From a virus (taxonomy: Duplodnaviria; Heunggongvirae; Uroviricota; Caudoviricetes): a stretch of DNA of 34,836 nucleotides. A model generated the notes under the pieces. It did no database searches and had not been told where the DNA came from. It saw only the letters and a program-made list of their open reading frames with translations. Where the stretch lies: positions 1 to 34,836 of IMG/VR virus record IMGVR_UViG_2687453454_000001. One strand, written 5' to 3'. Position numbers and translations under genes: made by a program. How positions within the stretch are numbered: position 1 is the stretch's first letter; every line of letters begins with the position of its first letter. Positions 582 to 14,214 of this stretch are shown piece by piece.

Positions 582-1589
582 CTATTTTGCCTCTTGGCGG
601 TTATCGAACGGGTTAAGTGCTACCGCAGCATCAAGGTGGTTTGGGGCAAAATGCGCATACCTCATTGTCATCATGATCGTGCTGTGCCCGAGAATTTGCT
701 GTAACACCAAAATATTCCCACCTCGCATCATGAAGTGACTCGCGAATGTATGACGTAGTACATGGGTACGCTGTCCTTTGGGCAGCTCTATACCTGCGCG
801 TGCGAGAGCTGCCTTAAAAGCCTCGTATGCGGGTGAGAAGAGGGCACCACGCTTTTTAGGGAGCATCGCCTGTAGTTGTTGTGAAATTGGCACTGTGCGG
901 TTCTTCTTGCTTTTGGTTTGCGTAAACGTCAGACGACCAGGAAGGATTTGAGATTGCTTTAAGTCTTGAGCCTCGCTCCATCGTGCACCGGTCGCCAGAC
1001 AAATCCGTACGATAATCCCTAAATCTTTATTTGCGGACTGGTCGCATGCTGCAAGCAATCGGTCAATTTCTTCCTCATACAGAAAAGCCAGCTCCTGATC
1101 ACCTTCTTTGAACTGCCTGATTCCAGACAGCGGGTTATCTCCTTCCCATTCCCCCAGCCGCTTCATTTCCGAGAATACTGCATGCAGATAAGACTGCTCG
1201 CGGTTTACTGTCGCTTCACTCAGCTTCTTCTTGCCTTTCTGATTCCATTCACCACTCAAACGCCGTTCCCGGTATACAGCGAAAGTGTTTTTATCAAAGT
1301 GAGAAGCCAATGGATCACCAAGACGTTCGCATATGGCCAGTAATTTCACCTTTCTTTCATCACCAGATGAGAGCGTTTTGCCATGCATCTCGTACCAGCG
1401 TTCAACGAATGCCGAAAGAGTCACAGCGCTGTCGTTTACCGGCTGGTTTGCAGCGTTATTCATTAAACGGCGCTCATGGGAGAGCGCTTCACCTTTGGTA
1501 GCAAATTGCTTACGTATGCGTTTCCCATCACGCCCGTAAGGGAAACACTGACAAAGCCATTTACCGGAGGGTAGTTTTCGGACGGTCAA
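582..1589 (-). CDS. int: P2-family tyrosine integrase
   Basis: 335-aa ORF with catalytic-type motifs ATGARWSEA, HVLRHTFASH and MRYAHF; close resemblance by eye to P2 Int; adjacent to a tRNA gene. Confidence 0.9.
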   Translation of the reverse strand: MTVRKLPSGKWLCQCFPYGRDGKRIRKQFATKGEALSHERRLMNNAANQPVNDSAVTLSAFVERWYEMHGKTLSSGDERKVKLLAICERLGDPLASHFDKNTFAVYRERRLSGEWNQKGKKKLSEATVNREQSYLHAVFSEMKRLGEWEGDNPLSGIRQFKEGDQELAFLYEEEIDRLLAACDQSANKDLGIIVRICLATGARWSEAQDLKQSQILPGRLTFTQTKSKKNRTVPISQQLQAMLPKKRGALFSPAYEAFKAALARAGIELPKGQRTHVLRHTFASHFMMRGGNILVLQQILGHSTIMMTMRYAHFAPNHLDAAVALNPFDNRQEAK

Positions 1590-2464
1590 TTACTCACCTC
1601 TGCATCATCATCAGATCCTGCATACGCGAGTGAAATGAACATTTCCGCAGCGTTATCAAGATGTGCATAGGTTGATGTAAATTCGATATCTCGACACCTA
1701 CAGACGAATGGGCGCGTTTGATTTTCTGGTTGGAAGGATAAACTTACAACTGGAGTTTTGCGTGGTTTACCATTTTTGAAAAAGTTACAGACATCCAAAC
1801 GATTGCAAAGGCCTGCATCATCTTGATAAGTAGCAACATGCCACCCCATACCATGAAGTGTATCGGCAAATGCTAAATGCACTTCTTCGATATTTTTATA
1901 TAAGCCAACGGAGTATTGTTTTTTCTTACTCTCATTACGTTTTCTTGGCAGGGATGGGAGCCTTGCTACACCAGGTATTTCAATTTTTTCCAAGCTGAAT
2001 GTTTTTACCGGGTGAGTCGGAGATGATAGGTCCGCTGCTCGCAGCGTAAAGTTATCAAGCAATGTCAGAGGAAGGATATCTCTTGCTGCTCCGGATCGTT
2101 CACCTCCGTGATAAATGATTGATAAATTATCTTTGGTATCAATTGACGACCAGATCAGGTCCAGAAGAGGGTGTTCATCATGGATTGTAAATGTTGGTGT
2201 ATTGCCCTTTTGACCTTCTATATTTTGCGCATCCGACAAGGGGGATAGGTTTAGAAATTGCTCGGTCGACAGCACCTCTGAACCTTGCTGAGATGCCTTT
2301 TTTATTTTGCTCGGACCAGCATTTTCACCGCAACAGAGATAGTTAAGATCCTTGGTGACATCACTTCTAACGACATATCCACGAGCTTTAGCAATTTCAA
2401 TAAGCTCATTTTTGTCTTTTTTCCCAAAACCTGTAAAACAAATAGTCCTCATATAAAACCCCAC
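1586..2464 (-). CDS. BRCT-domain protein with WYL-like middle domain and C-terminal extension (cargo gene; function unknown)
   Basis: N-terminus TICFTGFGKKDKNELIEIAKARGYVVRSDVTKDLNYLCCGENAGPSKIKKASQQG has the BRCT pattern; the middle LSIIYHGGERSGAARDILPLTLLDNFTLRAADL...KTFSLEKIEI resembles a WYL domain. Probable ATG start at 2452 (ORF track start at 2464 is GTG). Its stop overlaps the int start by 4 nt. Local GC is lower than the phage core. Confidence 0.7.
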   Translation of the reverse strand: MGFYMRTICFTGFGKKDKNELIEIAKARGYVVRSDVTKDLNYLCCGENAGPSKIKKASQQGSEVLSTEQFLNLSPLSDAQNIEGQKGNTPTFTIHDEHPLLDLIWSSIDTKDNLSIIYHGGERSGAARDILPLTLLDNFTLRAADLSSPTHPVKTFSLEKIEIPGVARLPSLPRKRNESKKKQYSVGLYKNIEEVHLAFADTLHGMGWHVATYQDDAGLCNRLDVCNFFKNGKPRKTPVVSLSFQPENQTRPFVCRCRDIEFTSTYAHLDNAAEMFISLAYAGSDDDAEVSN

Positions 2465-2468
2465 GAAG

Positions 2469-3098
2469 TCAGAAAAATAATGAACCTAACAGGAAACCAA
2501 TTAAGAAGATGACAATGAATTCTTTCGCGTGGGATCGCAGCAATGTAGTGACATCCAATGGAGAGTGATTCTCTCTCGGGGGAGAAGGCGGAATATCTTG
2601 TGTTTGCTGGTCCAGCCACGATAAACACATTTGAAGCTGGTTGCGTGTTAGGTCATTCAGTCGACCAGTTCCGAAGTTAACATGGCAATAACGAATCAGT
2701 TTCTGCCTCAATTCGCTGTCTTCACTATTTCGAAGGAGAAGGCTAACAAGTGCTTTACTTGCATCTTTATCCTTAGCGCGTTCGAGCATGGACTGCAAAA
2801 AGCTAACTGCAGTCTGATATTGGTTGACGGTCATTTCTTCGATACTCGAAACGCCAATCTCTGCATGCAGCTTTTGCCAGATCTCATATGCTTCATTGCC
2901 GTAGGAATCAGAAACAAGTGCTACTAGGGCATTAAGTTCTTTTCTCTGCGCCCTAACCAAAGGACGCTCATCGTGAGTATCTGAGGGAATCGCAATGTTG
3001 ATGGTGTGACGGCCATCAAATTTATCGATCTGAACGCGGTTTTCTGTGAAGTCGCGTCCAGCGGTGCGGTTTTGATCTCCAGAGGAATTCACTTCCAT
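2469..3098 (-). CDS. hypothetical protein with C-terminal transmembrane anchor (cargo gene)
   Basis: 209-aa ORF; C-terminus FIVIFLIGFLLGSLFF is a hydrophobic helix; GGGAAG RBS-like sequence about 5 nt upstream of the ATG; starts 13 bp after the repressor stop and ends 4 bp before the BRCT gene. Confidence 0.6.
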   Translation of the reverse strand: MEVNSSGDQNRTAGRDFTENRVQIDKFDGRHTINIAIPSDTHDERPLVRAQRKELNALVALVSDSYGNEAYEIWQKLHAEIGVSSIEEMTVNQYQTAVSFLQSMLERAKDKDASKALVSLLLRNSEDSELRQKLIRYCHVNFGTGRLNDLTRNQLQMCLSWLDQQTQDIPPSPPRENHSPLDVTTLLRSHAKEFIVIFLIGFLLGSLFF

Positions 3099-3111
3099 AC
3101 TGCTTCCCTAT

Positions 3112-3501
3112 TTATTTTTTTTCGTTGTAATCCCTGCCAGCCACTCGGTTGCCATTTCCTGACACATTGACTGAGTTTGAGACGGAGTTGCCAGCCGTTA
3201 AGGCTGCAAATACAGCAGCTTTGATGGCTAATGGGGCGTTTCTGAAATGATTAATTAGATCATGCTCGTCCCGTGTTAGTGCAACACCACCAGATTCTTG
3301 CCCTGTCAAAATGAACTGGACGTTAGCCCCATTGAGGGCGAAGGAACGCAAAACATTGCCGCCGGGAACGGCAGCGCCTCGCTCATACTTCCCCCAAATT
3401 TCTCTGGATATACCGCAAAGTTCTGCAATGGAGGCTTGATTAAAGCCCAATCTTTTCCGTTCATTTTTCAATCTGATAGCGCATTGAGAATCAAAGTTCA
3501 T
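3112..3501 (-). CDS. prophage immunity repressor (HTH, XRE/CI-like)
   Basis: Helix-turn-helix signature RLKNERKRLGFNQASIAELCGISREIWGKYERG; divergent from the early operon as for P2 C / 186 cI. Start chosen at the ATG at 3501 because the upstream in-frame starts (3537, GTG 3555) overlap the promoter/operator; the maximal ORF is 3112..3555. Confidence 0.7.
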   Translation of the reverse strand: MNFDSQCAIRLKNERKRLGFNQASIAELCGISREIWGKYERGAAVPGGNVLRSFALNGANVQFILTGQESGGVALTRDEHDLINHFRNAPLAIKAAVFAALTAGNSVSNSVNVSGNGNRVAGRDYNEKK

Positions 3502-3511
3502 AAAACACCGT

Positions 3512-3540
3512 TTGACAATGAGAACTATTGTTCTCATACT
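3512..3540 (+). promoter_or_regulatory. candidate early (lytic) promoter with overlapping palindromic operator
   Basis: TTGACA at 3512-3517, 17-bp spacer, CATACT at 3535-3540; the spacer holds the palindrome ATGAGAAC-TATT-GTTCTCAT (3518-3537). Confidence 0.5.
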
Positions 3541-3578
3541 GTTTTCCACAGACACTTAGCAGATCACAATATACCACT

Positions 3579-5893: not shown

Positions 5894-8335
5894 GTGACTC
5901 AGGCGCGTCGTGTTCACTCAATGACTACGGATAAACCGGGCAACTTTGACGAGTCTGCCCGGTACGCCTATCCGTGGAATGAACCAAAACAGGCCATTGC
6001 CGTTGATAAGACTCCTGCTGTTGATCTATATGAATTGGGTCAAGAGCAGGAGTTTTTCGCGTGGGTTGAAGATACTCTCAAGCCACTACCTACATTTATT
6101 CGCCGCCGCGTTTCATCCCGCATAAATGCCGTACACGCTGACAAAGGGCGTCATATTGCAAAGTTAACTCTTCTCAATATCGTGGCGCGTGACCTTCCAC
6201 ACGTGCGAGCAGTTACAGAGCAATATGCCGCGCCTGTTGGCAGTGACTGGATCATTTATTCCGAATTAAACCCACTTTTTCATACGTTTGATAACCTTCG
6301 CGAACTAACGCGCCGGTTCAATCAGTTGGCTGACTGCACGGACGAAGATATTGATTTACTTGCTCAGGATATCGCTATTTATGCCAATGCTGCCTTAGCT
6401 GAAGTGAGTGAAACCTGTGCTGTACTTAGCCCTGTAGAGTACAGCAAACGAATGCTGCTGGAAGGCTCAAGGCTGATTGCTTACTTCGGGCTAATCGCGC
6501 CCTGGGCTTCACGGCGCAAAATGCCACTTGATGAAATGGCTGCTTCAATTCGAAAAATTCTTGATGATCATTTTTGGTCACGCCTGCTGCGAAAGTACGC
6601 GCGCCGCTGGCGTGAACATCTGCATATTGCCTTTGGTGATGTGCGTCGCGATGTGTCCCCCTATTGCAGCAAAAATCACGTTAAACAGTGGGATGCGCGT
6701 CGCAAACGTAGCAGGGCAATCATGAGCCGCCTGGAACTTGAAGATCAGGTTACGGGTGAGCGCATGTCGTTGATAGAACAGATTGATAAAAGCGTATCGA
6801 ATCCTGAAAAGCGCCGCGTAGAACTTATGACGCGTATTGGTGGCTTTGAGAAGGTGGCAACGGAAAGCGGTTATGCCGGAAGTTTCTTCACGCTCACCGC
6901 CCCGTCTAAATATCATGCCTATACCGCGTTTGGACACCGCAACCACAAGTGGAACGGGGCAAGCCCTCGCCGATCACAGCGGTATCTCAATCAAATATGG
7001 CAACAGATTCGCGCTGAACTCGCACGCCGCGAAATTCCTGTATTCGGTCTTCGCGTTGCTGAATCCCATCATGACGGTACTCCGCACTGGCATGGCCTGC
7101 TGTTTACAGACCCAGAGCACACTGATGAGTTGAAAGAGGTCATGGAAGACTACGCAACGCGTGAGGATGCGGAAGAGTTAACTGGCAAGTCTGGTAAGCA
7201 GCCCCGCTTTGAACTTAAGCCGATTGATCCGGCTTTGGGTAGCGCTACGGGTTATGTCGTTAAATACATCTCAAAAAACATTGATGGTTACGCTCTGGAC
7301 GGCGAGAGCGATCATGAAAGTGGACGCCCTCTGAAGGAAACCGCTAAGCACGCAACAGCCTGGGCGTCATGCTGGGGGATACGCCAATTTCAGTTTTTAG
7401 GGGGAGCGCCGGTGTCAGTCTGGCGTGAACTTCGCCGCCTGAAAAATCAGGATTTAGCCGACAGGGTTAGTCCTGTTTTTGGTGAGCTGCACCGCGCGGC
7501 TCACGCAGGAGATTGGCAGGGTTACATCACCTTACAGGGTGGCCCTTTTGTTTCCCGTTCCAAGTTGGTGCTGCGCGCCTGGTATCAATACAAAAACGAG
7601 CCAAGCAGTTACGGCGAGTATCAGAAAGCTATCAAGGGTCTGGTTATGCCAGCATCCAGCATTCCGCCCGTAGAAACGCGCCTCCATTCTTATCGCATTG
7701 TGAAGATGAGGCCTAAATCTTCAGACCGTGTCGATCCGGGTTTTGACCTTAAGGGCGCGTCTGCGACCTCTTGGACTCGTGTCAATAACTGTACGGAGTA
7801 CAAAAAACACACAGTTTCACCGCCTGTCTATCCTCCAGATCTGACTGTGCCAGCTGGCGAAATACAGCCAGAGCAATTTGAAATCGGTCAGTTAAGCCGA
7901 GATCAGAGAAAACAGATTGAGGAAGACATCAGAAACCACAAATCAAATCAGCGTGTTTCACCTGCTGATCAGTTTGAGATGCTTGCATTAAGCATTACTG
8001 CCGGTGATTGCACCGATTATGACCGGGCTAGGGCTGAAAGCTATATGAAGGCAGCACATGCTCTTCGCCAGGAAGAAAGCGCGGTGAGTGAGGAGGTTGA
8101 ATCCCTGGCCAAGGAAATTATGGGATGGGCGAAGATGAGAAAAATTTCAATCAATCCGGTACAGGCGATGAAGCTGGCTCAGGGGGGAGAAGTAATGGCA
8201 CTTGATACGACATATCGGGCTAACCCGGTAACGGGTGAATTGATTGTGACCGGTGCAGATAAGCACTGGCGCAAGACGCTGGCACGACACAAGGCAGAGA
8301 CATTAGTTAACCGCTGGCTTCAGGCGGTTAAGTGA
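5894..8335 (+). CDS. A: P2 gpA-like rolling-circle replication initiator
   Basis: 813 aa; motifs HHDGTPHWHGLLF and GYVVKYISKNIDGYALDG match the P2 A family; GTG start at 5894 with AAGGTGAG RBS (alternative ATG at 5921). Confidence 0.9.
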   Translation: MTQARRVHSMTTDKPGNFDESARYAYPWNEPKQAIAVDKTPAVDLYELGQEQEFFAWVEDTLKPLPTFIRRRVSSRINAVHADKGRHIAKLTLLNIVARDLPHVRAVTEQYAAPVGSDWIIYSELNPLFHTFDNLRELTRRFNQLADCTDEDIDLLAQDIAIYANAALAEVSETCAVLSPVEYSKRMLLEGSRLIAYFGLIAPWASRRKMPLDEMAASIRKILDDHFWSRLLRKYARRWREHLHIAFGDVRRDVSPYCSKNHVKQWDARRKRSRAIMSRLELEDQVTGERMSLIEQIDKSVSNPEKRRVELMTRIGGFEKVATESGYAGSFFTLTAPSKYHAYTAFGHRNHKWNGASPRRSQRYLNQIWQQIRAELARREIPVFGLRVAESHHDGTPHWHGLLFTDPEHTDELKEVMEDYATREDAEELTGKSGKQPRFELKPIDPALGSATGYVVKYISKNIDGYALDGESDHESGRPLKETAKHATAWASCWGIRQFQFLGGAPVSVWRELRRLKNQDLADRVSPVFGELHRAAHAGDWQGYITLQGGPFVSRSKLVLRAWYQYKNEPSSYGEYQKAIKGLVMPASSIPPVETRLHSYRIVKMRPKSSDRVDPGFDLKGASATSWTRVNNCTEYKKHTVSPPVYPPDLTVPAGEIQPEQFEIGQLSRDQRKQIEEDIRNHKSNQRVSPADQFEMLALSITAGDCTDYDRARAESYMKAAHALRQEESAVSEEVESLAKEIMGWAKMRKISINPVQAMKLAQGGEVMALDTTYRANPVTGELIVTGADKHWRKTLARHKAETLVNRWLQAVK

Positions 8336-8419
8336 GTTTTGAATCAGGTCAGTGTTGTCGGAGCGGTGACGGATGTAAGTGCGATTCGGCTATTCAATGG
8401 AGTTAGAAAGGATAAATAG

Positions 8420-8446
8420 AAATGCCCCGTTGCCGGGGCATTTTTA
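8420..8446. terminator. bidirectional intrinsic terminator
   Basis: Stem ATGCCCCG / CGGGGCAT with loop TTGC, flanked by A-rich sequence on one side and T-rich on the other; sits between convergent gene A and the HTH gene. Confidence 0.7.
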
Positions 8447-8450
8447 CTTA

Positions 8451-8828
8451 CTACTCGAGCGTTAGTTGCTCGGGACTGCATTTGTACAGTGTAGCTAGCC
8501 GTTCAAGGTTGTCTTTGCGAGGACGCTCAGACTTTTCGAACTCGGACACTGTAGATTGCTTAATTCCCAGCGCTTCAGCGACTTGTTTTTGCGTCAAGCC
8601 TCTGTAAACACGCCATGCAGCCTGCATGGTGCAACCCTTCTCAGAAAGAATGTTGATAACTTCGTTTGGGTATCGAACGTTATCAGATGTGCCGGTTTCG
8701 TTTTGAACAGGCTCGTATAACTCTGCGATATCACTATCACGGGTCAGTTTTTCGAACAGTTCAATCGGCACGACAGCAGAAATTCTTTTCCCTCTACTGT
8801 CTGTGATGAATTGAATGTTAGCCATCAC
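8451..8828 (-). CDS. HTH (XRE-type) protein, putative antitoxin
   Basis: 125 aa; C-terminal HTH LTQKQVAEALGIKQSTVSEFEKSER; lies downstream of the RelE/ParE-like gene on the same strand. Confidence 0.6.
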   Translation of the reverse strand: MMANIQFITDSRGKRISAVVPIELFEKLTRDSDIAELYEPVQNETGTSDNVRYPNEVINILSEKGCTMQAAWRVYRGLTQKQVAEALGIKQSTVSEFEKSERPRKDNLERLATLYKCSPEQLTLE

Positions 8829-9011
8829 TCTTTAGTCCTACGTAGATTGTTAAAAAACAAAGATTTTTAACTTATGCGTCTTCGACTGCGTAGACCACTT
8901 GATATAATTTTTGGCATCTAAATACTCCTAATTGGTTGATTGAAATTAAAAATTTTTTTTCTTCAACATCTACCGTTTGAGTTGACGGGGCGGGGTTTCC
9001 CCCGCCACTCA

Positions 9012-9290
9012 TCAATATGTCGTGGACGTTCGGCGCAAGATGCGCTGAATCTCGATCACTACAGGGGCATTGTTGCTTAAGGCATACAACACTCTGTAAT
9101 TCCCAACCCTCAGTCGATACTTACCATCACTATCAGTGAGCTTTTTAACATCAAGCCCCTTCAGGTCAGGATATGACTGCATCGCGTTAACCTTCTCGCG
9201 AACAGCTTTTTGATCTTTTGATGGTAGCGAGCGTAAGTCCTTAACGGCCTTACCAGTCCATTGAATGTTTGTCGTCATGACGAACCTCAA
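9012..9290 (-). CDS. RelE/ParE-superfamily toxin-like protein
   Basis: 92 aa; GKYRLRVGNYRVLYALSNNAPVVIEIQRILRR matches the RelE/ParE core pattern. Confidence 0.65.
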   Translation of the reverse strand: MRFVMTTNIQWTGKAVKDLRSLPSKDQKAVREKVNAMQSYPDLKGLDVKKLTDSDGKYRLRVGNYRVLYALSNNAPVVIEIQRILRRTSTTY

Positions 9291-9332
9291 AGGTAAATTG
9301 TTAAAGAACGCATCCCGAAACTCGGAATAACT

Positions 9333-9404
9333 ACAATATAGGGGTTAACCCCTATATTGTCAAGAAAGCCCTATATTTCCATGCGCTGATATAGGCAATA
9401 TAGT
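9333..9404. promoter_or_regulatory. operator region with perfect 28-bp palindrome and repeated half-sites
   Basis: ACAATATAGGGGTTAACCCCTATATTGT at 9333-9360, plus CCCTATATTT and ATATAGGCAATATAG copies downstream; lies between the divergent toxin gene and the 128-aa gene. Confidence 0.55.
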
Positions 9405-9411
9405 TCGCGAA

Positions 9412-9798
9412 GTGAGTGATACGGTGAATTTTGATGGGCTTTCACGGCAGGAAAAGCGAGAACTGGCACAGCGGTTTAGTGACGTTGTTCGAAGCAAACT
9501 TAAAACACGTCCACCGGAACGAGAAGAAGGGGCTGGACTATCGGTGAAGGAGCTTATAACTAAAGAACTACTTGAGCTATGTGGGATTGATGCCTGTGTC
9601 GGGATGATAAAATCAATAGTACCGGGAACGCATATTGGCTATATCGATCTGATTTTTGAGATCGAAGATGGACGTCTAGCGTTCAAAATTTGCTCAGAAA
9701 CAAACTTCAATGTTGCTACTAAACAAAAGATGGCGAACATTTTAGATAGAGATAGAATACTAAAAAGGTTGAAGCAAGCTTTGTTTACAAATGGATAG
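9412..9798 (+). CDS. hypothetical protein (128 aa), first gene of the AT-rich cargo pair
   Basis: ORF with GTG start at 9412 (alternative GTG at 9424); GC falls along the gene; ends 20 bp before the 944-aa ORF. Confidence 0.5.
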   Translation: MSDTVNFDGLSRQEKRELAQRFSDVVRSKLKTRPPEREEGAGLSVKELITKELLELCGIDACVGMIKSIVPGTHIGYIDLIFEIEDGRLAFKICSETNFNVATKQKMANILDRDRILKRLKQALFTNG

Positions 9799-9818: not shown

Positions 9819-12653
9819 ATGTGTGTCGTTATTTACCACAAATTGGGATTGGTTATGAGCATTATGAAAATAGAAGTAAAAGGTAAGCCAAAAGGAGCAG
9901 TCATTTATATCAATGTCAAGAAAACCATAGCTTTTTATTTGACGATTTCAATTTTAATTCTGCTTGGGATGTATTTATCACGTTTTTGTTCTGTGCCATA
10001 TAAATATTTATTGATTAGCCCATCTTTTTATAATAATCCATATCTTAATTGGATAACTGGTGTTTGGGGTAGTTTTTTAGGCATGCACGGTACTATAGCT
10101 GCTTTGTCTATAACTTTTATGGGAATGTTTGTCGATCAGGTTTCAAAGACATCTGAACATGGTTTTGAGCATTTATCGAAAGTCTTATTGCTAAGAGAGT
10201 ATGATTTTTTAGGATTTAGTGTTGAATCAGTGTGTAGTCTATTATGTGGCGTTTTTTTACTTCTCATTGGTAGTGGCTTGATTGGATATTTAATTTCATC
10301 TTTACTTTCTTTATTTTTTATCACTAAATATGGCATTATGTATTATAGACTTTACCATTTAACAGAAGAACCCGGAGTTATTAATGGGATTTTATTAGAT
10401 TCTATCAGGACAACAGGCATCAAGTATAATGAGATTAACAAACAACGACAGATTCTTGCTAACGAGTTTTCTCAAGTAATATCGGGAGGTGATTACTACA
10501 GTGATGATCAAAGTGCCTTCTATTGGAATGATGATGCGATAACGATAAATATTTTTCCTGATGACACTGATGTGGTTATTTCTGGATACAATCCAAACAT
10601 ATTTAATCAGCTTTCGGTAAAGATTAAAGAATTTAATTTGAACCATCCGCCTATCTTGCTTTTCTCTTTATCATTCTTATCACCCATATCAAATTCCTCA
10701 ATGAAAATCATTCCATCTAATAAATCTGATTTGACAGAGGAGCATATTTCATCAATTGAATCAATTTTGAGGAAAGGGCTGATATTTAGTTCTGTTCCTT
10801 ATGTTTTTAATGAGTTTAAACAATTTGAAGAAGCTCTTGTAGTAAACGTCAGAAACAGTTTGCTGAATGGTGATGAGTGGACGTTAGATTTTGGAGTGCG
10901 TATTTTTTATGAACTAACTTCAAATGATAACTATATCTACACTCTAAAGAATATAGATTTGTCAATTACGTCCTCTAATACTAAAGATGTGGTGAAAACA
11001 TCTTTGTTTGCAAGTTATTTTGAAAAAATGATACGTGAGGCTTATAATCAGAGTAATCTTGAAAAGGCTGCTAATATAATGCGGTCGTTAATAGACCTAG
11101 CGAGATATATTTATGGTAAGAATAACTTTGTCGATTTTTATAAAAGGATTTTTAGACAATTTGACCATAGGGTAAAGTATCGTGCAGAAGAATCAAATTA
11201 TGTTTTTTTAGATCTGTATACATCCACTGTGCTGCACAACCTAGTATATAAGAATTATGCGGCTTTCAAAGTTGATACTGAGTTTGTGACGCGTAGATTG
11301 CAGTATCTAGATCTTAGCAATAAAACAGAACATGATTCATTGAATGAAATGCAACGTAAGATATTACGTTTATTATTTGAAGTTATATCCTTGCTAATTA
11401 TGCGAATAGAGCATGTGAAGGCGAAGGGTGAAGAACGCAAAGAGGAACTCAACGAATTAATCATTTCATTGAAGTCTTGGGTAAATGCTAAATTTTTGCA
11501 GGAATTATATTACAAAAAAGAGCTTTACGATGTGTTGTTTACTATACCTCAAGAGTTTTCGGTATTCGGTGCAGAAACTAAAATTCGAGAAATACCAGAT
11601 GGTGAAGCGACATGGAGATCAGTTTCGAACGATACTTATAAGATGATCGCATTCGTTCTTACGCAAAGCTCTTTCAACAATAATCAATTGAATCTTTTAT
11701 TTGTTAGAGATGCATTTCAATTTAAAAATGCTACGTCAATATTAACCCGCGAATTAAGTTCTATAATAGATTACATAGAGGGTGAATCTTTCTCTAAATT
11801 ATTTAAATTGATAACTGAAAAGGATTTGGTCGAAGATAGTAATAAAAAAACAGTAGTTGAGAAGTTGGAGTCGATTATTTCCTCGCAAAATTCTTTAGTG
11901 CTGCGCAGTGTGATCGAATCAGAATTAGAGCCTTCATTGGTTGATAAATATAGTAACGAGATCATACATTCTGTGGAGAAGCTATTTGAGCTAATTTTGC
12001 CATTGGAAGCAATTCCTTTAGAGATTGGATTCAATGGGATCGAATCACATCTATTAATTAATAAAAGAGAGGTGCTCCCCCCAATTGATGGTGTTTCTTA
12101 TGGAATGAACATTCATAACCATAGTCAGTGGTTAATATATGAATGGATCAGGAGTGTATTAAACAGTATTGATATAAATGCTGTGGAGGTTATCACTATT
12201 GATGACCCACAAGATTTGCCAACCGAAAAATTAGTTACCATAGAATATCAAGTTGAAGATAGAGTTAACACTTTTAGGCATTCTCGAGGTTTAAAAATTA
12301 ATGATAAGGAAGGCCATTTGAATTTGAATGGTTCTGGCTTGTATTATTTGGATTTATTAAATAACTTTAATTTAAAAAAATCAAAAGAAATACTAACGGT
12401 TAACATAGAAAAGATATTTGAAGGAAATATTGAAATGGTTAAAGGACGATATGATTTTGATAATGATAATCCTTATCTATATTCAATTTTAAATGTCGTT
12501 TTTAACATTGTTGCCATACCAAATATGATATGTAAACTTTATTTTCTATCGGAAGATAAATGTCTGTTAATCAATCAAAAACAAGAAAGAGAGATGGAGC
12601 AATTAATTAAAGGGAACAGAACGGAGAATCCTGATAACAGTAATGTATCTTAA
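9819..12653 (+). CDS. large AT-rich membrane-anchored protein of unknown function (944 aa)
   Basis: Uninterrupted 2.8-kb ORF in very AT-rich DNA; N-terminal hydrophobic helices (TIAFYLTISILILLGMYL, WITGVWGSFLGMHGTIAALSITFMGMFV, VCSLLCGVFLLLIGSGLIGYLISSLLSLFFI) then about 750 aa of soluble sequence; alternative starts at 9855 and 9864. Confidence 0.7.
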   Translation: MCVVIYHKLGLVMSIMKIEVKGKPKGAVIYINVKKTIAFYLTISILILLGMYLSRFCSVPYKYLLISPSFYNNPYLNWITGVWGSFLGMHGTIAALSITFMGMFVDQVSKTSEHGFEHLSKVLLLREYDFLGFSVESVCSLLCGVFLLLIGSGLIGYLISSLLSLFFITKYGIMYYRLYHLTEEPGVINGILLDSIRTTGIKYNEINKQRQILANEFSQVISGGDYYSDDQSAFYWNDDAITINIFPDDTDVVISGYNPNIFNQLSVKIKEFNLNHPPILLFSLSFLSPISNSSMKIIPSNKSDLTEEHISSIESILRKGLIFSSVPYVFNEFKQFEEALVVNVRNSLLNGDEWTLDFGVRIFYELTSNDNYIYTLKNIDLSITSSNTKDVVKTSLFASYFEKMIREAYNQSNLEKAANIMRSLIDLARYIYGKNNFVDFYKRIFRQFDHRVKYRAEESNYVFLDLYTSTVLHNLVYKNYAAFKVDTEFVTRRLQYLDLSNKTEHDSLNEMQRKILRLLFEVISLLIMRIEHVKAKGEERKEELNELIISLKSWVNAKFLQELYYKKELYDVLFTIPQEFSVFGAETKIREIPDGEATWRSVSNDTYKMIAFVLTQSSFNNNQLNLLFVRDAFQFKNATSILTRELSSIIDYIEGESFSKLFKLITEKDLVEDSNKKTVVEKLESIISSQNSLVLRSVIESELEPSLVDKYSNEIIHSVEKLFELILPLEAIPLEIGFNGIESHLLINKREVLPPIDGVSYGMNIHNHSQWLIYEWIRSVLNSIDINAVEVITIDDPQDLPTEKLVTIEYQVEDRVNTFRHSRGLKINDKEGHLNLNGSGLYYLDLLNNFNLKKSKEILTVNIEKIFEGNIEMVKGRYDFDNDNPYLYSILNVVFNIVAIPNMICKLYFLSEDKCLLINQKQEREMEQLIKGNRTENPDNSNVS

Positions 12654-13161: not shown

Positions 13162-14214
13162 TCACTTCGTGGGTTCAAGCAATGCGTAAGGGTTGAAGCG
13201 AATCACCTCCTCACCCAGCCAGTCGTTAACATGCTTCATGGCTTCCATGTAGGGTGTCAGCTCGTTGACGGCGAACACGCGGGCCGCTTTCTCAATATCA
13301 CCGAATGAACCGTTCCCTTCCGGAATGGCGCCCATCAGTTGCGGCGGTACCCGGTGCGCTGCCAGCATGTCATCGCGGGTGGAAGACTTCACCCCCACAA
13401 ACTCATCCTTAGCCGATATCTGGCTGAATGGCAGTATTTGCACGGAGTCTTTGCCGCCGTTAGGTGCGTGCAGAAGGATGTTCTTAAACGCACCGCCGCG
13501 CCGGGTATCCGTCAGCGTCTTTTTGAGCTTATCAAGGCTCTCCTGGTCGGCCATCGCGCTGTTAACGTAGACGATGCAGCCAGCGTGTGAGCCGTTGTCG
13601 TAGTAAAGCTTTCTGAACTTGTCAGCAGAATGGGCCAGATTTGCAGACAGCAGGCCAGCGAAATACTCAGGCATGCCGTATATTTCCTGGTGAATATCCG
13701 GGCTGAGAACGTGGCATACCGAGCCCGTTGAAAACATGTGATCCTGTAGCCCGGCCTGAATAAACCAGTAAGTGTCCAGGTCAGAACCACGGCGTGTGTA
13801 TTTCGCCAGCGAGTGACGAAAGCCAAAGGAACCACCAAGCCGGTTTTTTCGCATCTCAAGATAACCATTCCCGAAGACAAACCAGTCCAGCGCGAAGGCG
13901 GAGAACACCTGGCGGGAAAGAAGTTTGTGCGGGACAAAGCATCCGGCAAGGACGTTGCGCTTGAAATAAAGCGCCGACTGGTGCCAGCTCGCATAGCCAA
14001 ACTGACGGGCGAGGCCATACCAGTCAATGGGGGTTTCGTAGTATCGCCCGTTGTCTGCGCAATACATGTTATCAAGCAGGTCGCTGGCACCACTCACCGG
14101 CCATGGACCGTCGAAGGTGAATGAGTTCAGCTCCGGTGACGCTTTCAGTGAGGCGGCGAGATCTGCCTGCTCCCTGGCATACTTCCTGCCGCGTGTGGGT
14201 CTTTGTTTGCTCAA
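13162..14214 (-). CDS. Q: portal protein (gpQ-like)
   Basis: 350 aa; position next to cos and the large terminase, and P2 Q-like sequence. Confidence 0.88.
   Translation of the reverse strand: MSKQRPTRGRKYAREQADLAASLKASPELNSFTFDGPWPVSGASDLLDNMYCADNGRYYETPIDWYGLARQFGYASWHQSALYFKRNVLAGCFVPHKLLSRQVFSAFALDWFVFGNGYLEMRKNRLGGSFGFRHSLAKYTRRGSDLDTYWFIQAGLQDHMFSTGSVCHVLSPDIHQEIYGMPEYFAGLLSANLAHSADKFRKLYYDNGSHAGCIVYVNSAMADQESLDKLKKTLTDTRRGGAFKNILLHAPNGGKDSVQILPFSQISAKDEFVGVKSSTRDDMLAAHRVPPQLMGAIPEGNGSFGDIEKAARVFAVNELTPYMEAMKHVNDWLGEEVIRFNPYALLEPTK

Follow-up and report, generated by a model that had tools for sequence, protein, structure and literature searches.

A probable toxin-first RelE/Xre toxin-antitoxin operon of a P2-like prophage, with a hairpin and a small, probably leader-type open reading frame between its genes

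Toxin-antitoxin (TA) modules in which the toxin gene comes first pose a design problem: more antitoxin than toxin is needed, though the toxin is translated first. To our knowledge, the systems described to date solve it by internal promoters or by translating the two genes at different rates. Here we analyse a toxin-first locus in the IMG/VR virus record IMGVR_UViG_2687453454_000001, a 34.8-kb stretch of DNA that is referred to as a whole as the window; the window locus carries the handle WIN and the relative loci fetched for comparison the handles L002, L003 etc. Both genes of the locus, one for a RelE-type toxin and one for a helix-turn-helix (HTH) protein, are encoded on the minus strand. 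The account that we favour, and hold to be likely with some room for doubt, is a single self-contained type II TA operon, toxin first, carried as cargo of the gpA–gpQ hotspot of P2-like phages, with a spacer that holds a hairpin and a leader open reading frame (ORF). What is new here is the spacer, with its covarying hairpin around the stop codon and a conserved rare-codon leader ORF between toxin and antitoxin. Gene identities, the conserved pairing, the operator architecture and the conservation of hairpin and mini-ORF were all computed. The two genes are the following.

9012..9278, minus strand: RelE-type toxin gene, 88 amino acids (aa) plus stop; ATG at 9278 is the likelier start
9290..9012, minus strand: toxin ORF in its longest form, TTG start
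8451..8825, minus strand: putative antitoxin/autorepressor gene, 124 aa; ATG at 8825 is the likelier start
8828..8451, minus strand: HTH ORF in its longest form, GTG start

The toxin ATG at 9278 is preceded by GAGG 7 nt upstream and is identical to the RefSeq start. The spacer (8829-9011) measures 183 nt, or 186 nt if counted to the HTH ATG. An initial annotation of this DNA had named a toxin, a downstream HTH gene and a 183-bp spacer, and all three are present on the minus strand at the coordinates given here. It had also likened the gene order to that of HigBA, and the toxin-first order is confirmed at the window locus.

With HigBA (Rts1 higBA, higBA-2) the locus shares the leading toxin gene, a toxin of the RelE/ParE superfamily, and a partner in which an N-terminal segment, putatively neutralising in the window protein, precedes a C-terminal Xre HTH with an expected role in autoregulation. 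In V. cholerae higBA-2, HigA2 binds the toxin through a disordered region at its N-terminus and has its Xre HTH at the C-terminus (PMC5416850, PMC11006873, PMC11980606). The window toxin differs from HigBA toxins in lying outside the HigB, HigB-like and Gp49 Pfam families and within the PF05016 RelE cluster, and the HigA2 and HigB2 structures gave no significant sequence match to the window proteins. A further difference is that the window genes stand 183 nt apart, with the hairpin and the mini-ORF between them. MqsRA is likewise a toxin-first system and combines a RelE-fold toxin with an antitoxin that binds the toxin through its N-terminal domain and ends in an Xre HTH. The MqsA N-terminus has a zinc-binding fold, whereas the window protein has none, and the window toxin is not of the MqsR family. 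The MqsRA antitoxin is reported to be transcribed in part independently of the toxin; in contrast, no internal promoter is detectable in the window spacer.

The closest toxin structures and sequences are those of archaeal-type RelBE (M. jannaschii RelB3-RelE3, 3BPQ; P. horikoshii aRelBE, 1WMI). The likeness extends to the antitoxin, whose N-terminus resembles the Pfam RelB-like domain, and this domain matches the RelB partner of the 3BPQ toxin. Unlike the archaeal-type modules, the window locus has its RelB-like segment fused to an Xre HTH and is bacterial, phage-borne and toxin first. In the PF05016 RelE cluster the antitoxin gene is usually first (Gerdes 2025, Table 1, PMC11980606). The relE-yiaG modules, in which toxins of PF06296 carry disordered N-terminal extensions and the YiaG N-terminus is helical (Gerdes 2025, PMC11980606), also have a RelE-type toxin gene upstream of an Xre-HTH antitoxin gene; the window proteins differ from them in being a PF05016 toxin and an antitoxin with a RelB-like strand-strand-helix.

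A precedent for the control of a TA transcript by a short upstream ORF (uORF) is toiL, a regulatory uORF of the E. coli topAI-yjhQ TA transcript, for which translation, and not the peptide, has been proposed to control the downstream gene (PMC12121999). Like toiL, the window mini-ORF is a short ORF in a toxin-first TA transcript. The toiL uORF lies upstream of the toxin gene and acts via occlusion of the toxin ribosome-binding site and Rho termination (PMC12121999), whereas the window mini-ORF lies between toxin and antitoxin and would act on the antitoxin; a conserved occluding structure is not demonstrated for it.

Within the family of the window locus the arrangements form an apparent evolutionary series, from a 17-nt overlap of the two genes through a spacer with the hairpin only to a spacer with the hairpin and a rare-codon leader ORF that appears to be translated. 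This passage from overlap to leader ORF would be a further, post-transcriptional solution to the toxin-first problem. Should the mini-ORF be without effect, the locus would be an ordinary RelE/Xre TA pair, as already annotated.

The toxin and its Xre partner

The toxin matches Pfam PF05016, the family that includes E. coli RelE itself (32.3 bits against a cut-off of 23 bits, 1.5e-7), and the PHROG family phrog_1213 'RelE-like toxin' (2.7e-16). It does not reach the narrower NCBIfam model TIGR02385 RelE_StbE (19.2 against a threshold of 27.9) or Gp49 (PF05973; 18.4 bits, under the cut-off of 23.9). No HigB-family match was found for it in Pfam, and neither NCBIfam nor PADLOC holds a specific family for the toxin or the HTH protein. 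A profile built from 29 toxin homologues matched M. jannaschii RelE3 (1.8e-10), P. horikoshii aRelE (8e-7), E. coli RelE (0.004-0.008) and also M. tuberculosis RelE. The AlphaFold2 (AF2) model of the toxin, with a predicted local distance difference test score (pLDDT) of 82.6, has the RelE/ParE fold of two N-terminal helices on an antiparallel sheet. Its best Foldseek matches are the archaeal RelE structures 3bpq_B and 1wmi_A (template modelling score 0.73-0.76, probability 1.0), with M. tuberculosis RelE also among the best matches; HigB structures are weak fold matches only.

Toxin residues K53, R55, R62 and R83 align with K52, K54, R61 and R81 of E. coli RelE, and the C-terminal Y88 stands where RelE has Y87, but just past the end of the alignment. 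We take these five RelE residues, from the RelE literature, to be active-site residues. Four arginines, R55, R57, R62 and R83, do not vary among the 29 homologues, in which conservation reaches at least 90% at R82 and Y88. The toxin is probably a RelE-type enzyme that cleaves mRNA on the ribosome.

The initial annotation had proposed an antitoxin candidate with an HTH, and the HTH of the downstream protein is indeed of the Xre type, with a match to Pfam HTH_3 (48 bits against a cut-off of 23, 1.3e-12). The protein also matches PHROG phrog_7241 (6e-32), and its AF2 model (pLDDT 85.5) shows a strand-strand-helix at aa 5-28, an acidic low-confidence linker at aa 29-52 and the Xre HTH at aa 54-121. 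Foldseek searches with the full-length model returned generic Xre domains only, and a solved full-length relative was not found among the hits. At their N-termini, 15 of 23 members of the family match the Pfam RelB-like domain at E<0.01 (best 3.8e-6). In distant toxin relatives (cyanobacteria, Trueperaceae, Nitrosomonas and others) the toxin gene is followed by a gene for a protein of 65-73 aa that has no HTH, gives weak matches to Phd/YefM and RelB-like models, and starts with a motif shared with the HTH protein, ..DGKp.FaV(I/L)PYEEF..L. The simplest reading of this pattern is that the N-terminal segment is the neutralising module of this toxin lineage, to which the Xre domain would be fused for DNA binding and dimerisation.

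The pairing of the two genes was assessed in 80 genomic loci encoding relatives of the toxin. An HTH homologue lies directly downstream on the same strand in 51 of them, which come from Enterobacterales, Pasteurellaceae, Burkholderiales, Pseudomonas, Lentisphaerota and others. The two genes overlap in 34 of these 51 loci, by exactly 17 nt in 29, and are separated by 16-170 nt in the remaining 17; the window gap is among the longest and is exceeded only by that of L110 (191 nt). Identity to the window toxin and identity to the window HTH protein are correlated (Spearman 0.51, p = 1e-4). It had been suggested that the HTH protein may be a regulator rather than a cognate antitoxin. Both the pairing, with its frequent overlap, and the RelB-like N-terminal motif common to these proteins and the HTH-less downstream proteins speak against this suggestion, and the HTH protein is very probably both antitoxin and autorepressor, as is usual in type II systems. 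Judged from the loci compared, the 17-nt overlap is the ancestral arrangement and the spacer a lineage-specific expansion.

The two proteins have not diverged evenly. Compared with window positions 8451-9278, loci L003, L085 and L087 show, for example, 74-75% identity in the toxin and 93-94% in the antitoxin, and their third codon positions differ at 47% in the toxin gene and 28% in the antitoxin gene. The stronger conservation of the antitoxin suggests recombination within the spacer or unequal selection.

Promoter, putative operator and hairpin

The elements that would govern transcription of the locus lie upstream of the toxin gene, at the start of the spacer and behind the antitoxin gene.

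9333..9363, minus strand: operon promoter, −35 TTGACA (9363-9358), −10 TATATT (9340-9335), 17-nt spacing, 11/12 matches
9333-9360, minus strand: putative operator of the HTH protein, a perfect 28-bp palindrome ACAATATAGGGGTTAACCCCTATATTGT that fills the −35/−10 spacer
9366..9403, unstranded: extra operator-like half-sites upstream of −35, CCCTATAT at 9369-9376 (exact) and ATATAGGC at 9389-9396 (one mismatch)
9311..9329, minus strand: stem-loop at the transcript 5' end, UAUUCCGA-GUU-UCGGGAUG, a few nt past the expected transcription start
9279..9310, minus strand: highly conserved 5' untranslated region GyTCTTTAAmAATTTACCTTTGAGG (alignment), including the toxin Shine-Dalgarno sequence (SD) GAGG
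8982..9015, minus strand: GC hairpin, stem GGCGGGG/CCCCGCC, GAAA loop 8999-8996, predicted −23 kcal/mol
8968..8981, minus strand: conserved block CTCAAAyGGTArAT right after the hairpin (alignment)
8420..8443, unstranded: terminator hairpin after the antitoxin gene, 10-bp stem with 6 GC pairs (terminator scan)

All enterobacterial relatives retain the arrangement TTGACA-ATATAGGG-N4-6-CCCTATAT together with two upstream half-sites. The extra half-sites of the window sit in the divergent region, toward a 128-aa ORF on the plus strand; the equivalent place in relatives has two direct ATATAGGG half-sites. Exact ATATAGGG occurs at three sites in the window, all at the TA promoter. The half-site varies with the HTH lineage, being ATAAG in Photorhabdus and Burkholderiales and ATTAGA in Pantoea, Haemophilus and Edaphovirga, a pattern to be expected under autoregulation. 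At the level of sequence, the promoter repeats fit a putative control of the operon by the HTH protein. A second operator in the spacer was considered and rejected, as no ATATAGGG-like site is found there. An equivalent of the 5' stem-loop, with a different, covarying sequence, is present in 13 of 13 folded relatives (e.g. AUGUCCCA/UGGGACAU and GUCCC/GGGGC).

A GAAA-loop hairpin and a 16-codon mini-ORF had both been pointed out in the initial annotation; both are real and both are conserved. Its remark that the genes lack translational coupling holds as well, in that they cannot couple by overlap at the window locus. The outer stem of the hairpin, UUGAUG/CGUCAA, encloses the toxin stop UGA (9014-9012). 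The hairpin recurs with covariation in the outer stem in all enterobacterial relatives examined, where the variants include UUAAAG/CUUUAA (L085/87/88), CUAAG/CUUAG (L003) and UGAAG/CUUCA (L096), and the inner stem GGCGGG/CCCGCC is invariant. An RNAalifold analysis of 11 long spacers returned the GC hairpin as the sole consensus structure, with an inner stem free of covariation. MAFFT alignments of both stem-loops were out of structural register, and pair counts were taken from per-sequence folds. Unrelated hairpins occupy the same place in relatives from Haemophilus and Cupriavidus. The hairpin is probably an RNA-stability or decoupling element and not a terminator.

The spacer RNA as a whole is predicted to fold more stably than shuffled sequences (z = −4.3), mostly owing to the GC hairpin and a clade-specific AU-rich inverted repeat. 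A long AU-rich hairpin as a general feature of the spacer was rejected, being clade-specific, with z around 0 in relatives once the GC hairpin is removed. A dispersed repeat (repetitive extragenic palindrome or miniature inverted-repeat transposable element) was rejected too, as the spacer occurs once per genome, at this locus only. An Rfam search of 8300-9500 with E up to 1 found no family. The toxin cistron is bracketed by the 5' stem-loop (9311-9329) and the GC hairpin (8982-9015), and the antitoxin cistron lies in AU-rich unstructured RNA, which points to unequal stability of its toxin and antitoxin portions within the transcript.

An alternative is that the locus consists of two transcription units, the hairpin ending the toxin transcript and a promoter in the AU-rich spacer, possibly constitutive, driving the mini-ORF and the antitoxin. 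Internal antitoxin promoters have been reported in other toxin-first modules (higBA of Rts1, mqsRA, hicAB), toxin-first systems need an additional supply of antitoxin, the spacer is AT-rich, and the hairpin is very stable, directly follows the toxin stop codon and has 3-4 U behind it in some relatives (L002, L004, L085). Independent expression had also been entertained in the initial annotation, a proposal that the further evidence does not bear out. The window hairpin is followed by CCGUCAACUCAAAC, which is no U-tract, and the terminator scan made no call there. Down to 8/12 matches, no sigma-70-like promoter on the TA strand was found in the window spacer or in the final 60 nt of the toxin gene, and when the spacers and toxin 3' ends of relatives were scanned for sigma-70 sites at relaxed stringency, the matches were scattered and none was conserved in position. 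The conserved blocks of the spacer are unlike −35/−10 elements, the sole near-consensus promoter and every operator-like repeat lie upstream of the toxin, and the ancestral arrangement is one of overlapping genes. We therefore consider two transcription units unlikely. With its only strong promoter upstream of the toxin, no promoter in the spacer and a hairpin that has no U-tract, the locus is most simply one autoregulated toxin-first operon, and co-transcription of toxin and HTH gene as one unit is the best-supported reading of these signals, though a weak internal promoter may be present.

Three further features of the strands were recorded here. The terminator at 8420-8443 is common to the convergent gpA (+) and antitoxin (−) genes and has the better T-run on the plus strand. 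A promoter-like site in antisense orientation lies at 8899-8926 (+; 9/12 matches) and is not accompanied by a terminator. An antisense ORF at 8940-9080 (+) was considered and found no support.

The mini-ORF in the spacer

The remainder of the spacer is taken up by the mini-ORF and the interval between it and the antitoxin gene.

8867..8929, minus strand: 16-codon mini-ORF MPKIISSGLRSRRRIS with SD AGGAG (8929-8925); ATG 8917-8915, stop TAA 8869-8867
8826..8866, minus strand: interval from the mini-ORF stop to the antitoxin ATG, 41 nt and conserved in length, including the antitoxin SD AGGA (8839-8836)

The SD AGGAG stands 7 nt before the ATG, and 5 of the 15 sense codons after the ATG are rare (ATA, CTA, CGA, AGA, ATA). 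Of the relatives whose spacer measures at least 167 nt, L106 alone is without the mini-ORF. About 14 distinct sequences with long spacers, which represent about 9 diverged lineages, retain an SD of the GGAG type, the ATG and a length of 16-19 codons, and the distance from the mini-ORF stop to the HTH ATG is conserved at 37-42 nt, while the sequence of that interval differs between clades. For a frame that opens at the given ATG, the probability of its running to 16-19 codons is about 0.08 per lineage, as estimated by shuffling. The bodies of these ORFs are close to unalignable, with a mean pairwise identity of 54% (range 43-66%). Within the window clade, substitutions are spread over the three codon positions as 75:80:73, and codon differences amount to 122 non-synonymous against 20 synonymous. 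The peptide is unrelated between lineages and differs even between WIN and L093, whose flanking proteins are 100% identical. In a Buttiauxella relative (L110:1765-1955), the 191-nt spacer contains an in-frame 24-nt tandem duplication, TCTAATTCATTTAGAT..., that results in a 24-codon mini-ORF. Another spacer ORF, of 47 aa (8872-9015, minus strand), was rejected, as it is open only in the window and runs to 21-30 codons elsewhere.

Thus SD, start and frame length are conserved independently of the peptide, as in regulatory leader ORFs. The codon content follows the same frame: AGA, AGG, CGA, AUA and CUA, the rarest codons of enterobacteria, make up 27% of codons in frame, compared with 10% and 5% when either of the other frames is read. 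Over eight unalignable lineages there are 32 rare codons out of 125, against 14.8 +/- 3.5 expected from stop-free shuffles (p ~1e-4), and the enrichment stays significant when the conserved terminal AGA codon is left out. This combination is the signature of a mini-ORF that would be kept for being translated, and translated slowly, and not for its peptide; we regard it as probably a translated leader that tunes antitoxin expression.

From these data we infer that the two genes are co-transcribed, that the HTH protein neutralises the toxin and represses the operon, and that hairpin and mini-ORF have the functions assigned to them here. Transcription would start at the near-consensus promoter upstream of the toxin and end at the terminator past the HTH gene. 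The RelB-like N-terminal segment of the antitoxin would wrap around and neutralise the toxin, and the Xre domain would dimerise on the ATATAGGG/CCCTATAT palindrome between −35 and −10, so that the operon is repressed. In the wider family the antitoxin start overlaps the toxin 3' end by 17 nt, and the enterobacterial branch would have exchanged this overlap for a spacer. There, the GC hairpin and the 5' stem-loop may protect the toxin cistron and separate termination on the toxin gene from initiation on the antitoxin gene. One sub-branch, to which the window belongs, would have gained a translated leader ORF of 16-19 codons; slow translation of its rare codons would hold ribosomes on the AU-rich spacer, shield it from RNase E and Rho, and hand ribosomes to, or expose, the antitoxin start some 40 nt downstream. 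The ratio of antitoxin to toxin would then be set post-transcriptionally.

A bolder extension of this scheme, which we put forward as speculation with little weight behind it, makes the rare-codon mini-ORF a sensor that gates antitoxin synthesis, so that the module would be a translation-monitoring switch for abortive infection or toxin feedback. Ribosomes would pause at AGA, CGA and AUA for a time that depends on the status of translation or the tRNA pool, which might be changed, for example, by phage-encoded tRNAs or a phage-induced shut-off. Paused ribosomes with an empty A-site would also be the natural substrate of free RelE. Either route would alter the yield of antitoxin per transcript, and the two stem-loops around the toxin cistron may add to the effect by stabilising the toxin message.

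Several observations weigh against the operon with a functional spacer as we read it. The inner stem of the hairpin is invariant, so that the covariation comes from the outer stem alone. With the hairpin removed, the spacer folds with z = −1.8 in the window and around 0 in relatives. The window HTH protein itself scores 17 bits (0.005) against the Pfam RelB-like domain, below the cut-off of 27, and an experimental paper on this toxin–HTH family was not found in the literature. The mini-ORF is absent where the spacer measures 130-144 nt (L002/L108, L109) and has decayed in L106, the Morganella locus in which SD/ATG and hairpin are both degraded; relatives with short spacers (38-99 nt) have the hairpin and no mini-ORF. 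Its absence from some relatives indicates that the mini-ORF is dispensable for the TA pair as such. In several lineages the antitoxin start region can pair with the 3' part of the mini-ORF, and a candidate helix AUCAUUAUUUU:AAAAUAGUGAU joins this start region to a segment 4-6 nt after the mini-ORF stop; a terminating ribosome would open either pairing. Compared with shuffled sequences, however, pairing between mini-ORF and antitoxin start is significant in 3 of 10 sequences (L087, L084, L088), and we do not claim a coupling helix, which is absent from the RNAalifold consensus and weakened in the window. Finally, the spacer evolves faster than the third codon positions of the flanking genes, a rate that weak constraint would also explain.

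The last point leads to a second alternative, according to which the spacer beyond the hairpin is neutral insertion filler and the mini-ORF a chance or decaying frame. No part of the locus evolves faster than the spacer, in which the window and L083 are 82% identical, compared with 96% and 99% in the two genes; its length among relatives ranges from 38 to 191 nt, it has no consensus structure besides the hairpin, and the mini-ORF is missing from several clades in addition to its loss in L106. Filler of this kind would hardly keep the SD, the ATG, the 16-19 codons and the 37-42-nt distance through about nine nearly unalignable lineages, be duplicated in frame in L110, or be enriched for rare codons specifically in the frame of the mini-ORF, and we rate this explanation as rather improbable. 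Less probable still is a third, that the mini-ORF encodes a functional basic peptide of 16 aa as a third component of the system. The strong SD, the conserved length and an Arg near the C-terminus of nearly all versions would agree with it, whereas the peptides defy alignment from one lineage to another, substitutions are spread evenly over codon positions with a ratio of non-synonymous to synonymous changes of six to one, the peptide changes between WIN and L093 despite the identity of the proteins on either side, and many functional-looking relatives do not have it. The translated leader of a single toxin-first operon remains our preferred reading.

Hotspot location and neighbouring cargo

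The window is a P2-like prophage beside tRNA-Leu in E. coli and is identical in 7 of 5,426 complete genomes. The TA module is located between the replication gene gpA (5894-8335) and the portal gene Q (13162-14214). The gpA–gpQ interval is the cos-proximal hotspot of P2-like phages, occupied in P2 by old and tin and in other cases by many defence systems (Rousset et al. 2022, PMC9122126). Relatives of the TA pair occupy the same hotspot, with differing neighbours, in Klebsiella, Enterobacter, Pectobacterium, Serratia, Dryocola, Kosakonia and even Burkholderiales; a small number, L106, L112 and L110, lie in the chromosome. The cargo next to the window pair is different or missing in most relatives. 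The constancy of the hotspot with varied neighbours indicates that the TA pair is a self-contained mobile cargo.

The pair may plausibly serve in phage exclusion or prophage maintenance, the P2 hotspot location being the sole ground for proposing defence: the defence models of PADLOC-DB gave no match to the toxin and generic HTH matches only to the HTH protein. A hotspot rich in anti-phage systems, together with an antitoxin supply that would be tied to ongoing translation, makes an abortive-infection device plausible, albeit unproven.

Divergently from the TA promoter run the 128-aa ORF (9412-9798, +) and a 944-aa ORF (9819-12653, +; RefSeq start 9855). Both have N-terminal hydrophobic segments and a GC content of 0.27-0.35, against about 0.5 in the phage backbone, and neither has a match in Pfam, NCBIfam or PADLOC; the 944-aa protein matches solely PHROG phrog_10073 (unknown function, 8e-150). 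The two ORFs, which are found beside the TA pair in the window, L082 and L093 only, form a second cargo of the same P2 hotspot and are a candidate defence system. A promoter-like site on the plus strand, TTTCCA-17-TATAGT (9376-9404), faces the 128-aa gene and adjoins the extra operator half-sites, so that repression by the antitoxin might extend to this adjacent cargo. That the HTH protein is a transcription factor only, for instance of the 128-aa and 944-aa genes, with the toxin an orphan or otherwise neutralised, agrees with the half-sites toward the divergent promoter and with the sub-threshold RelB-like match of the window protein, and we nevertheless rate it as the least probable explanation, since the toxin–HTH pair is conserved across phyla, mostly with overlapping genes, since those cargo genes are not constant companions of the pair, and since its N-terminal module is common to HTH-less antitoxins in the same position.

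In two other P2-like hotspots a distant member of the TA family is found together with a second TA-like pair, namely a DUF6516/HVO_A0114 DNA-binding protein pair in E. coli LH50-c (L104; NZ_CP100500.1 4101036-4106310) and HicAB in L109, which indicates that TA modules stack in this hotspot. Beside the prophage integrase, the RefSeq annotation at 1586-3555 (minus strand) has genes for a BRCT-domain protein, a membrane protein and a repressor-like HTH protein, and beyond this region a Dam methyltransferase gene that is annotated as truncated.

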